From positions 740 through 64,739 of the forward strand of contig DFGC01000010.1 of assembly GCA_002371155.1 (NCBI GenBank): a DNA stretch of 64,000 bases, in the 5' to 3' direction. The first letter of the stretch is position 1, and every line of letters starts with the position of its first letter. Below, one piece after another: positions 49,467 through 52,245 of the stretch. The notes under the pieces were generated by a model, which did not search any database, was not told the DNA's origin, and worked only from the letters and a program-made list of their open reading frames with translations. Origin of the DNA: Alphaproteobacteria bacterium UBA3760. GTDB taxonomy: Bacteria; Pseudomonadota; Alphaproteobacteria; Rs-D84. Position numbers and translations under genes: made by a program.

Positions 49467-49494
49467 TTGATAAATTGGCAAAATGTGCTATAAT
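49467..49494 (+). promoter_or_regulatory. Near-consensus sigma-70 promoter giving an apparently leaderless transcript
   Basis: TTGATA, 16 nt (ending TGC), TATAAT. The -10 element ends only 7 nt before the ATG at 49502, and no Shine-Dalgarno sequence is present. Confidence 0.55.
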
Positions 49495-49501
49495 TTAGCA
49501 T

Positions 49502-50494
49502 ATGTCGATATATAAACGAATTTTGCCTTGTTTTATTGCGCTATCCTGTATTCATAACGCGTATGCTGATGATACGGGTATGGCTTTGGCAGATTTGTAT
49601 TCTGTATATGAAACAACTTCTCAATTTTGTGATGGAATATCCGACCGGATATCGGCTGTGTCTGGGATATCAAAAATAAATACCGGGATAACGGCAACGG
49701 GAACTGTGGCGGCGGGTGGTGCATTATATGCCGGTATAAAAAAATCTGAAACCGATCAAGAAATCGCCGAATTGGCAAAGCAATTATGTGCCGATGGCGG
49801 TTGCGACCCAGACAAAGTCGAGGCGATGTCTGATCAAGAATTTTTCGATAAAATATTACCAACATTGATCGAAATGATATCGCGTTCCGAGTCAAATGCC
49901 GCTGAAAAAATGGCACAAAAATCTGAACTGGATGCCATGGTTGCAAAATCGAAACGGCTGGGAAATTGGCGCACAGGTTTATTGGCGGGAACGGTCGGCA
50001 CAAATGTTGCGTCGGCAATAATATCGGGATTAAATAAAAACCAATCTGATTTGATACAACAAATTTCTGCGTGCAATGTGGCGGTGGCACGATTGCGCGA
50101 ATATTATAATGCGGCATTGCAAAATGGTGTAAATCCAATTGAAAATCCGGTTATGCAAACATTCCAGACGACTATAACAAATTGTGGAACATTACAAATA
50201 TCTGATGTTGAAAAAATAGAAAAACGTATGACGGCGGTTTTTGGAACATCGATTGCGGGCGCGACGATTGGTGCGGTCGGGACCGGGACATCGATTGTGG
50301 CGAATACTGATAAAATTCGCAACGATAATTCTGATGCCGGTAAACAAACAGAAAAAACATTAAACACAATTTCAAATGTTGCGGCAGGAACAAATATCGC
50401 CACTGGAATCGTTGGAACAGGATTAAATATATCATTGATAACATTGACGCGCGATTTAATGCGCACTGCACAAAATTGCGAGGATACATTATGA
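49502..50494 (+). CDS. Secreted protein with glycine-zipper-like segments
   Basis: Signal peptide MSIYKRILPCFIALSCIHNAYA. Repeated G/A/T small-residue stretches (GTVAAGGALYAG, GTSIAGATIGAVGTGTS, AAGTNIATGIVGTG) and scattered Cys. No family recognised. Confidence 0.65.
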   Translation: MSIYKRILPCFIALSCIHNAYADDTGMALADLYSVYETTSQFCDGISDRISAVSGISKINTGITATGTVAAGGALYAGIKKSETDQEIAELAKQLCADGGCDPDKVEAMSDQEFFDKILPTLIEMISRSESNAAEKMAQKSELDAMVAKSKRLGNWRTGLLAGTVGTNVASAIISGLNKNQSDLIQQISACNVAVARLREYYNAALQNGVNPIENPVMQTFQTTITNCGTLQISDVEKIEKRMTAVFGTSIAGATIGAVGTGTSIVANTDKIRNDNSDAGKQTEKTLNTISNVAAGTNIATGIVGTGLNISLITLTRDLMRTAQNCEDTL

Positions 50495-51750
50495 TAAAAC
50501 AATCTGCGTTTTTATTATTGTGTATGATTCCAAGTATTGCGTTTGGAACGGTTGCGGGCAATGTCGATAATCGCGAGGTTATTGGTTGGGTTGGTGAAAA
50601 ACCGGAATATGTTGATAAAACCGGATATAGAAATATATGGAATACCACACCATATAATAATTATGTGTGTATTGGTTCAGGCAAAAGATGTGCTACGGGT
50701 GAATTTATATCGCCACGTCACATTTTAACCAATGTTCATGTTGCCCATGGTTGTGGTTTAGGTATCAACCCAGAATGCGTCATACAAACGTCAGATGGCA
50801 AAACATTAAGTGCGAAAACGGTCTTTTACGGGGTAAGGGATTGGGATAAATCTCAAATGAGAACAGGAAATGATTGGGCTATATTGGAAATAACAACGCC
50901 TGGGTTTTGCAGTTCGCATTATTTTTGGCATAATATAACCACTATTGGTGGCAATATGTGGCGTGCGGGATTTGGTCAATTGCGAAAATTGACACCCCAA
51001 GATTTTGATAATATCAGAAACGCATATAATATCGCGGCACATTATACGGCTCAATTTGATGATACGGGTTTGTATGTGAATTATCAAAATATAGCAAATA
51101 ATATCATGTTAAATTTCCAAAAAGAATTCGCCAAACAAACGGGTGAAAATTTTGTTCGTGATTATTTGTTTGATAATGGTACATTAAAATTGATAGATAA
51201 TTGTTCAATATTTGAACGATATAACAACAACAAAATGGCGCGACATAATTGTCAATCATGGCCGGGTGATTCGGGCAGCTCAATACAAAGCAGATTTAAT
51301 CAAATTGTTCTATTGCATAATTCTGGACTGTCGACAATTGGTGGTCAAAAACATAAAAGTTCTGGGATATCAACATCGCAAATTTTTTCTGATGAAATAA
51401 TGAATGTGTTGAATGATTCCAGGAAAAATTGCAATGCAACACAAACATCTAAAAAAACGCGGTATAATTCACAATCCGCAATTCGCAAAATTGGTGTTGT
51501 ATGTGTAGAATCAGATTTGCCCCCACATGCATCCGACGGTGTTTATATAAAATCTGCATCAAAAAAATACGATTGTTCGGATGGTGTTGCATGTTCATGT
51601 GCGGCAACACAATGTGAATCTGGGTATTATTTGGTTGTAAATTCCAATGGTGATTCCCAGGGGTGGTGCTATACCCATCGTTGCCCAACGGGTCAACATT
51701 TGAATATAATTGATGGGATAAAAACAGATACAAAATGTGTTGACGACTAA
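50491..51750 (+). CDS. Secreted S1-family (trypsin-like) serine protease with Cys-rich C-terminal domain
   Basis: ATG overlaps the upstream stop (ATGA), with GAGGA upstream. Signal peptide present. Catalytic triad contexts: HILTNVHVAHGC (His), NDWAILEI (Asp), WPGDSGSS (Ser). The last ~90 aa hold 10 Cys. Confidence 0.8.
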   Translation: MIKQSAFLLLCMIPSIAFGTVAGNVDNREVIGWVGEKPEYVDKTGYRNIWNTTPYNNYVCIGSGKRCATGEFISPRHILTNVHVAHGCGLGINPECVIQTSDGKTLSAKTVFYGVRDWDKSQMRTGNDWAILEITTPGFCSSHYFWHNITTIGGNMWRAGFGQLRKLTPQDFDNIRNAYNIAAHYTAQFDDTGLYVNYQNIANNIMLNFQKEFAKQTGENFVRDYLFDNGTLKLIDNCSIFERYNNNKMARHNCQSWPGDSGSSIQSRFNQIVLLHNSGLSTIGGQKHKSSGISTSQIFSDEIMNVLNDSRKNCNATQTSKKTRYNSQSAIRKIGVVCVESDLPPHASDGVYIKSASKKYDCSDGVACSCAATQCESGYYLVVNSNGDSQGWCYTHRCPTGQHLNIIDGIKTDTKCVDD

Positions 51751-51788
51751 AATTTTTGTGCTATTCTTCGTATCGAAGAGGTATAAAA

Positions 51789-51995
51789 ATGGCAAACAAA
51801 AGAAAAACATTGATTTTAATGGCTTTGATGTGTTTGGCTGCGTGCGCACGTTCTGATGAAAATAATTCGCACAATAATGGCGGTGTATACAGTCCTGCTG
51901 ATTATGACCGTGCAACATGGAATAAATTGGATTCTGTATACTTGCATGGCTTGGAAATGCGCTATGCAGATTCTGTGAATCAAAAAACCAGGTAA
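51789..51995 (+). CDS. Small lipoprotein, paralogue A
   Basis: Start ATG 51789 follows GAAGAGG. MANKRKTLILMALMCLAAC carries an LAAC lipobox. 68 aa. Confidence 0.6.
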   Translation: MANKRKTLILMALMCLAACARSDENNSHNNGGVYSPADYDRATWNKLDSVYLHGLEMRYADSVNQKTR

Positions 51996-52027
51996 TCTAT
52001 TTGTTATATGTATCAAAGGGGTAAAAA

Positions 52028-52219
52028 ATGAAAAAAAATAAAAAAATGTTGGCTTTGTTGGCATTAATGTGTTTGGGGGCGGTTGCATGTTCTGACGAAA
52101 ATGATACACCAAATGAAGATAACGGCAATGGAATGCCGCATTATGACACTGCATCATGGACATGGGATAAACACGTGGTCCCAGATACAATATTTTATAA
52201 ATCCCAAAAATCCAGATAA
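52028..52219 (+). CDS. Small lipoprotein, paralogue B
   Basis: MKKNKKMLALLALMCLGAVAC, lipobox-like. It shares ALMCL..AC..DEN and a Y-D-x-A-(S/T)-W motif with paralogue A. 63 aa. Confidence 0.6.
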   Translation: MKKNKKMLALLALMCLGAVACSDENDTPNEDNGNGMPHYDTASWTWDKHVVPDTIFYKSQKSR

Positions 52220-52221
52220 TC

Positions 52222-52245
52222 AAACGGGCGTAATGCCCGTTTTTT
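52222..52245 (+). terminator. Rho-independent terminator ending the 49.5-52.2 kb operon
   Basis: AAACGGGC-GTAAT-GCCCGTTT followed by a T-run. Confidence 0.85.

Follow-up and report, generated by a model that had tools for sequence, protein, structure and literature searches.

In the Lif-LipA system, the gene of a dedicated all-helical envelope protein lies beside that of a single secreted enzyme, the only enzyme to need this protein. Toxins of the ClyA family (ClyA, tripartite Ahl and Smh) are all-helical proteins of approximately 300–350 amino acids (aa) with a long coiled-coil body, encoded in small operons. In Agrobacterium, both the permeabilisation of membranes and the translocation of Tde1, a type VI secretion system (T6SS) DNase, are driven by a glycine-zipper motif (PMC10240207). 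In this study, an operon was analysed in a 64,000-nucleotide (nt) stretch of DNA (the window; positions 740–64739 of contig C9) from an 864-kb, 97% complete genome of the alphaproteobacterial order Rs-D84. The first gene of the operon, here called gene 1, encodes a predicted exported protein with glycine-zipper-like segments; it overlaps the gene of an S1B-like serine protease, and two genes for small lipoproteins (mini-lipoproteins) follow. Gene 1 belongs to a conserved pairing in which a glycine-zipper protein goes with an exported cargo that varies; this pairing had not been foreseen when the operon was first read from its letters.

Bacteria of the Rs-D84/Enterousia group are found widely in the guts of animals and humans and are presumed to live off other cells. 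No biosynthesis of amino acids, nucleotides or lipids is encoded in Rs-D84 genomes, which are smaller than 1 Mb, and an obligately partner-dependent lifestyle has been suggested (PMC12306168). Searches with sequence profiles and folds, and of the literature on Enterousia and on glycine-zipper effectors, revealed no described family or system in which a gene 1-like protein is coupled to variable cargo. The earlier reading had likewise matched the operon to no described system, and this held for gene 1, for the Cys-rich tail of the protease and for the module as a whole; on their own, the protease, the lipoproteins and the leaderless start are unremarkable. Being nearly always tied to an exported cargo and having no described match, the gene 1 family is a strong candidate for a part of the machinery for interaction with partner cells.

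Pairing of gene 1 with variable exported cargo

A survey was made of 98 gene 1 homologues in fetched loci, with cargo defined as a gene of at least 100 aa starting between −25 and +150 nt of the gene 1 stop. A coupled downstream gene was present in 87 of these loci, typically with an overlap of 1 or 4 nt, and the cargo products nearly always carried a signal peptide. The cargoes fell into 12 BLAST clusters. Fifty-eight of the 87 matched a hidden Markov model (HMM) of the window protease, and the His-Asp-Ser triad was kept in 50 of them. Cargoes without a match to this HMM were exported proteins containing Cys, in about ten groups unrelated to one another and without a Pfam match; searching Pfam with eight representatives of these other cargoes gave nothing except one trypsin-like protease. 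Mean column identity was 52% for gene 1 versus 34% for the cargo. These loci form cassettes of a descriptive class in which a conserved partner is joined to a variable exported cargo. A triad residue was lost (KDS, SDS, QDG, DNG, HSS, HDY) in the cargoes of loci L024, L027, L029, L030, L034, L044 and L063, which are candidate pseudo-proteases.

The pairing was also seen from the protease side, as seven of the nine protease genes in 31 related genomes sit in a gene 1 cassette. Cargo class tracked the gene 1 tree, with 31 changes compared with a mean of 41.1 after shuffling (0 of 200 shuffles as low), and the proteases with a Cys-rich tail all paired with one gene 1 clade (97% support). One-to-one genetic coupling and a cargo type inherited with its partner would also fit a Lif-like role, in which gene 1 encodes a dedicated periplasmic steric chaperone, holder or anchor keeping the enzyme folded or inactive until general export, for example through a secretin. 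The gene 1 product is predicted to be all-helical and exported, the genome has a secretin, and the cargoes include enzymes able to harm the producer's own envelope, all of which are compatible with such a role. However, the most conserved parts of gene 1 are uncharged small-residue helices and not a cargo-facing surface, which would be expected to vary with the cargo; moreover, the same conserved core serves unrelated cargo folds, and the variable-length stalk has no obvious chaperone function. Lif and gene 1 are alike in specifying an all-helical envelope protein next to a secreted enzyme, but Lif has an N-terminal membrane anchor, is encoded downstream of the enzyme, serves a single enzyme class, and has neither glycine-zipper segments nor conserved cysteines. 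We consider the chaperone explanation improbable.

Three gene 1 cassettes are present in the genome, namely the window locus and one each on contigs C16 and C6 (Table 1). The C16 cargo matched a PHROG endolysin family (9.8e-10) and a tail-injection transglycosylase family (6.7e-6). The C6 cargo, a 340-aa Cys-rich exported orphan, starts 1 nt after the stop of its gene 1 paralogue. The only secretin gene of the genome lies approximately 5 kb upstream of the C6 cassette.

Distribution of the gene 1 family

Word search gave more than 525 relatives of gene 1, and a library of 1.84 billion proteins contained 389 clusters at 50% identity. The family was present in 103 of 151 sampled Rs-D84 genomes, each with 1–10 copies, so that a 0.9-Mb genome can have as many as ten loci. 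It was absent from all 298 genomes of other Alphaproteobacteria (252 other genera). The family is accessory and confined to the order Rs-D84. The relatives of both gene 1 and the protease all came from gut and rumen metagenome-assembled genomes labelled Alphaproteobacteria or Candidatus Enterousia.

Sequence and architecture of the gene 1 product

The N-terminus of the gene 1 product (MSIYKRILPCFIALSCIHNAYA followed by DD) has the form of a normal signal peptide of aa 1–22, with the cleavage site between AYA and DD. Six cysteines (43, 96, 101, 191, 228 and 326) are invariant in the family alignment. Four uncharged segments are rich in small residues (52–68% Gly/Ala/Ser/Thr; window hydropathy 1.0–1.4) and are the most conserved parts of the protein, with a conservation of 0.80–0.83 compared with 0.60 for the rest. 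Their conservation has a periodicity of 75–105 degrees, indicating helix and not strand (160–180 degrees), and they carry the small-residue ladders of the glycine-zipper motif class, e.g. invariant T249, G253, G260, S264 and A267. A beta-hairpin reading of the segments is not favoured because a 160–180 degree periodicity is lacking. Conservation is lowest between segments 1 and 2, exactly where family members of 570–640 aa (up to 639) have a long, charged coiled-coil expansion. Four proteins from other genomes (P0209, P0211, P0220 and P0238) differ from the 330-aa form only by such an expansion, of 250–300 aa.

Profile searches of Pfam, NCBIfam, PHROG, PADLOC and PDB gave no match for gene 1, and the recurrent weak Pfam matches (P5CR_dimer, Patatin) were compositional matches to Gly-rich sequence. 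None of the Pfam glycine-zipper families (Gly-zipper_Omp, YMGG, Rick_17kDa_Anti) matched the window gene 1 at E <= 0.1, and these were also absent among the 25 families most often matched by 32 gene 1 members (E <= 5). An AlphaFold2 (AF2) model of the product consisted of helices throughout.

A secreted protein with approximately 300 aa in its mature form, all-helical, in which uncharged small-residue helices are conserved and a coiled-coil stalk varies, could itself be the active agent, that is, an alpha-helical pore-forming toxin or bacteriocin for which the protease serves in maturation, activation or digestion of the target. The strong promoter and the accessory family of varying copy number would suit such a protein, and pore structures of ClyA, SmhB and AhlB were among the Foldseek matches of gene 1, none of them significant (E 0.6–1.8, probability <=0.38, on a model of low confidence). 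Against a pore-former are the cargoes, about a third of which are not proteases, while 8 of the 58 protease-like ones lack a triad residue. None of the 32 gene 1 members matched a Pfam pore-former family, and a Sec-exported pore-former would need self-protection, for which no conserved immunity gene is present. ClyA-family toxins share with gene 1 their size, helical body and operon setting, but carry one hydrophobic membrane-inserting head, in contrast to the four small-residue segments of gene 1; there is no sequence-profile match between them, and the partner of gene 1 is an enzyme and not a second pore component. This explanation was judged a rather unlikely one.

Proposed role of the gene 1 product

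The best-supported reading, which we put forward tentatively, is that gene 1 encodes a partner that inserts into a membrane and serves to dock, release or translocate the enzyme made with it. Four observations favour it: gene 1 is coupled one to one to exported hydrolases, cargo type is inherited along the partner tree, the family is accessory and multi-copy, and the lineage has a partner-dependent lifestyle. Gene 1 would be transcribed from the strong extended −10 promoter adjoining its ATG, most likely as a leaderless mRNA, and its product would be exported by Sec and translationally coupled to a Sec-exported cargo, here the S1B-like protease. The four small-residue helices may form the packed foot of the protein within the membrane, probably as part of an oligomer. 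On one side of the membrane would lie the N- and C-terminal helices (C43 and C326) together with a C191–C228 hairpin, and the variable coiled-coil hairpin with its C96-x4-C101 loop would project on the opposite side; the positions of the cysteines are topologically consistent with a four-helix foot, and a surface-exposed, diversifying stalk would fit. Either the outer membrane of the bacterium itself or that of the cell on which it lives could be concerned, and the Cys-rich tail would target or bind the protease.

A precedent is offered by Tde1, in which repeated small-xxx-small motifs, also found in gene 1, are tied to permeabilisation and to carrying an enzyme across the target membrane. The zipper of Tde1 belongs to the effector itself, at the N-terminus, and delivery there depends on the T6SS (PMC10240207), whereas the gene 1 product, known here from sequence alone, would be exported by Sec as a polypeptide of its own, with four long segments and predicted disulfides.

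Several observations weigh against a membrane-inserting partner. Two family proteases (of the nine in the 31 related genomes) lie away from any gene 1, and the cargo classes showed no recognition motif common to all of them. The gene 1 family is absent from 48 of the 151 sampled Rs-D84 genomes, about a third. The disulfide pairing and membrane topology were read from alignment positions alone, and the hydropathy of the segments is below the classical transmembrane threshold. The AF2 model was poor, with a predicted local distance difference test score (pLDDT) of 56.8 overall and below 50 in the segments, and a Foldseek search of PDB with this low-confidence model gave no match with E < 0.3. 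Genes for a secretin and an autotransporter, and two TolC-like genes, are also present in the genome; a dedicated exporter is therefore not required, and no argument can be built on a missing secretion route. For the same reason, gene 1 as the sole route across the outer membrane was not supported. The one-third of Rs-D84 genomes without the family also makes an essential envelope component unlikely.

A bolder proposal, which we regard as speculative, is that the gene 1 family constitutes the membrane part of a self-contained, Sec-dependent delivery device of Rs-D84. The disulfide-stapled helical protein would form a pore or dock with a stalk of variable length, oligomerising by way of its four glycine-zipper helices, and the co-translated enzyme (protease, cell-wall hydrolase or others) would cross the outer membrane of the producer or enter the envelope of a partner or prey. 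Such a device, if real, would feed a bacterium unable to make its own amino acids. Should gene 1 encode a translocator or dock, it would represent a new route for enzyme export or delivery and a handle on an uncultured parasitic lifestyle.

The protease and its C-terminal module

The predicted catalytic residues of the protease (H83, D128 and S261) were invariant in 20 homologues, consistent with the complete His, Asp and Ser contexts that the sequence-only reading had described. Pfam Trypsin matched marginally above its cut-off (24.0 bits versus 20.6) and Trypsin_2 below it (23.6 versus 27.6). A PDB profile search was led by 1p3c, the glutamyl endopeptidase of Bacillus intermedius (E 1.8e-11). 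The AF2 model (pLDDT 82.7) had a two-beta-barrel fold, and Foldseek gave 817 PDB matches at E <= 0.001, the top ones being 1p3c (6.6e-9), SplA/D/E/F (Spl proteases, E ~1e-8) and exfoliative toxins, with template modelling (TM) scores of 0.64–0.70 on the target.

The S1B enzymes (1P3C, staphylococcal V8, SplA-F and Esp) and the protease are alike in the chymotrypsin double-barrel fold, the His-Asp-Ser order, the TNxH, DW and GDSGS contexts, and the signal peptide and secretion; proteolysis here is predicted from sequence and fold. The protease differs from these enzymes in having only 12–16% identity to them, a helical insertion of approximately 70 aa (residues ~165–235) and a C-terminal 90-aa disulfide-rich module; its gene also lies behind that of an orphan helical protein, with which it is coupled. 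Judged from its sequence and modelled fold, it is a new, divergent S1B member with a new tail module.

The C-terminal module was well modelled as all-beta and had no match in Pfam or PDB. Ten cysteines had been counted in this tail of about 90 aa in the sequence-only reading, in which it was also likened to a fibre-like open reading frame (ORF) with CTAKYCLLVEDEDGTPHW at the start of the window; the last 90 residues hold eight, and the likeness was not recovered by BLASTP. In searches of the whole genome, neither a tail query nor a tail HMM found the fibre-like ORF, and a fold search of BFVD with the protease model gave only protease folds and no fibre; the proposed likeness was rejected. The tail HMM did detect the module in two other exported proteins of the genome (C3:3141-4241 and C6:117415-118308, both on the minus strand), and the tail part of the protease profile also matched a 924-aa ORF of a relative. 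Its occurrence in other proteins suggests that the module is a mobile, probably binding, domain. The C3 and C6 proteins share a near-identical C-terminal region of approximately 70 aa with a glycine-zipper stretch (…AGVVLGTVGGVITS.IIKKNQIENGF.DLKCTIGGQTVASYGDEF.VGVK), which could be a common anchor.

Mini-lipoproteins

By inspection of the sequences, both small genes behind the protease gene encode products with a basic n-region, a hydrophobic h-region and a lipobox Cys (MANKRKTLILMALMCLAAC and MKKNKKMLALLALMCLGAVAC), as expected of lipoproteins and as had been read earlier. The two products are 45% identical over 44 aa. The pair was found only in the near-identical strains L099 and L101, and a profile search of 5.8 billion proteins gave nine relatives. 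A single lipoprotein of 94–96 aa with a shared ADS(V/I)NQ motif occupies the same slot in L098 and L004. No mini-lipoprotein is present in L003, where a protease gene whose product is 50% identical runs straight to the U32 peptidase gene, and in the other fetched cassettes only marginal tblastn matches (E >= 0.003) were obtained, and neither tblastn nor the gene calls placed a lipoprotein relative downstream. The mini-lipoproteins are narrowly distributed and the least conserved part of the operon.

These results bear on the earlier suggestion of an effector-immunity or protease-inhibitor module, according to which the protease, with or without a membrane-active gene 1 product, is a toxin that the two periplasmic lipoproteins neutralise in the producer. 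The lipoprotein genes lie directly 3′ of the protease gene with their own ribosome-binding sites and no terminator between, they are tandem paralogues with a lipoprotein in the same position in L098 and L004, and the endolysin-like C16 cargo could endanger the producer's own periplasm. Set against this are the scarcity of relatives and their absence from L003 and from behind the other fetched cassettes, so that the lipoproteins on which the suggestion rests are not co-inherited with the protease; in addition, the mature lipoproteins are only ~45 aa long and match no inhibitor family. Overall, we regard immunity of this kind as unlikely. The inhibitor idea could hold locally for the two small genes, the conserved module being beyond its reach. 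If gene 1 encodes a membrane-inserting partner, the two mini-lipoproteins would be a recent local add-on, possibly periplasmic inhibitors that shield the producer.

Promoter and translation start of gene 1

Leaderless mRNAs of bacteria have a −10 box 6–8 nt before the AUG, no Shine–Dalgarno (SD) sequence, and a 5′ end at or next to the start codon. In the region 48900–52400, the top promoter-like site was the TTGATA/TGcTATAAT pair in front of gene 1 (11/12 match plus TG), which agrees with the near-consensus promoter reported earlier. No purine-rich SD was found before ATG 49502, again as reported, and SDs (GAGGA, AGAGG and AGGGG) stand at the proper distance before genes 2 to 4. An in-frame TAG at 49496–49498, just 5′ of the ATG, leaves no earlier start possible. 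Since the plus-strand terminator and the minus-strand tRNA-Thr gene lie upstream, the operon needs a promoter of its own within the 365-nt gap, and the only strong one there adjoins the ATG. With the −10 box at this distance, no SD and no alternative start, the layout is like that of known leaderless mRNAs and in no way unusual. The mRNA of gene 1 is quite likely leaderless, as judged from this geometry.

The same geometry recurs elsewhere. In the C16 paralogue, TGtTATAAT is followed after 6 nt by the ATG. Among 75 gene 1-family loci with a confident start, a TGnTAnAAT element was found upstream in 46, and its distance to the start was bimodal: the −10 box lay 4–11 nt from the start in 23 loci (6–8 nt in 13 of these) and 18–29 nt away, usually with an SD, in 21. 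In L098, from the nearest other species, the box is 32 nt before the likely gene 1 start. The bimodal distances and this longer leader indicate that the leaderless state comes and goes within the family. A genome-wide scan of 392 TGnTAWAAT sites for the distance to the next long ORF start gave a sharp maximum at 7 nt (14 sites); 41 sites lay at 6–10 nt, including those of ruvC-like and transketolase-like genes, and approximately 1–3 sites per nt were counted beyond 35 nt. Leaderless mRNAs are seemingly a major expression mode of this genome. As the layout recurs both in the family and genome-wide, it is a house style and not peculiar to this operon, a common arrangement that is known here from the DNA itself.

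Alternatively, the transcript may begin further upstream, for example at a weaker promoter-like site (49339–49366, 9/12), giving gene 1 a leader and a translation start without an SD. Such a site does exist, and L098 and the 21 family loci with the longer spacing have leaders. However, the 11/12 extended −10 promoter only 7 nt from the ATG, the short spacing repeated in the C16 paralogue and the 23 family loci, and the genome-wide peak all speak against a leader, which is accordingly considered unlikely.

The U32 peptidase (TrhP-like) gene just downstream of the operon (52250–52287) has TTGAAA, a 16-nt spacer, TGtTAGAAT ending at 52277, and its ATG at 52285 without an SD, a layout that likewise looks leaderless. 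A 68-aa ORF at 49251–49457, with no match and identical in close strains, fills most of the gap between the tRNA-Thr gene and the promoter.

Locus layout and neighbourhood

The coordinates of the features are listed in Table 1. The stop of gene 1 (TGA, 50492–50494) overlaps the start of the protease gene (ATG, 50491–50493) in the ATGA noted before, indicating translational coupling. The terminator that had been placed at the end of the unit was recovered as a stem-loop of −12.3 kcal/mol (z −2.95).

Table 1 Features of the gene 1 operon and related cassettes
Feature	Position	Strand	Remarks
Terminator upstream of operon	48977-48997	+	
tRNA-Thr(TGT)	49061..49136	-	upstream boundary of unit
-35 hexamer TTGATA	49467..49472	+	from reading and promoter scan
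Extended -10 element TGcTATAAT	49486..49494	+	16-nt spacer after -35; ends 7 nt before ATG 49502
Gene 1	49502..50494	+	330 aa, predicted exported all-helical, orphan family
Small-residue (glycine-zipper-like) segment 1, aa 58-80	49673..49741	+	61% G/A/S/T; conservation 0.80 (0.60 elsewhere), with a periodicity of 100 degrees
Small-residue segment 2, aa 158-178	49973..50035	+	preceded by invariant GNWRTG
Small-residue segment 3, aa 244-268	50231..50305	+	
Small-residue segment 4, aa 290-316	50369..50449	+	
Protease SD GAGGA	50480..50484	+	within 3' end of gene 1, 6 nt before ATG 50491
S1B-like serine protease	50491..51750	+	419 aa; signal peptide ~aa 1-19
Protease triad (predicted)	H83 50737-50739; D128 50872-50874; S261 51271-51273	+	S261 in GDSGS
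C-terminal Cys-rich beta module, aa 330-419	51478..51747	+	8 Cys; orphan domain
Mini-lipoprotein 1	51789..51995	+	68 aa, lipobox LAAC
Mini-lipoprotein 2	52028..52219	+	63 aa, lipobox AVAC; paralogue of mini-lipoprotein 1
Intrinsic terminator, stem-loop plus T run	52222..52248	+	stem-loop 52222-52242, 8-9 bp
C16 cassette, outside window	C16:2630-4473		gene 1 paralogue overlaps 305-aa exported cargo
C6 cassette, outside window	C6:163589-165566		gene 1 paralogue with leader, GGGGGA SD

Conservation of the four-gene order in other genomes had been proposed as a check on the operon; the full layout was found only in the near-identical strains L099 and L101, and the widely conserved unit is one of two genes, gene 1 and the protease or other cargo gene. 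The order cvpA, gene 1, protease, U32 peptidase is repeated in other species, which marks the locus as a resident chromosomal one and not an island; the gene order is that of an operon inherited vertically on the chromosome of Candidatus Enterousia, with cvpA/tRNA-Thr on one side and the U32 peptidase gene on the other. A mobile island at the tRNA was rejected for this genome on the same ground, GC content being only mildly low (0.36 in the protease gene, compared with ~0.41 for the genome). A tRNA-like sequence is also present directly upstream of gene 1 in L025 and L098. In one relative (L008 and L009, positions 1–5400), the place directly upstream of gene 1 that the tRNA and a short non-coding gap take in the window is filled by a phage-type integrase, an AAA_25 protein and six small ORFs, possibly an island inserted at the same spot.

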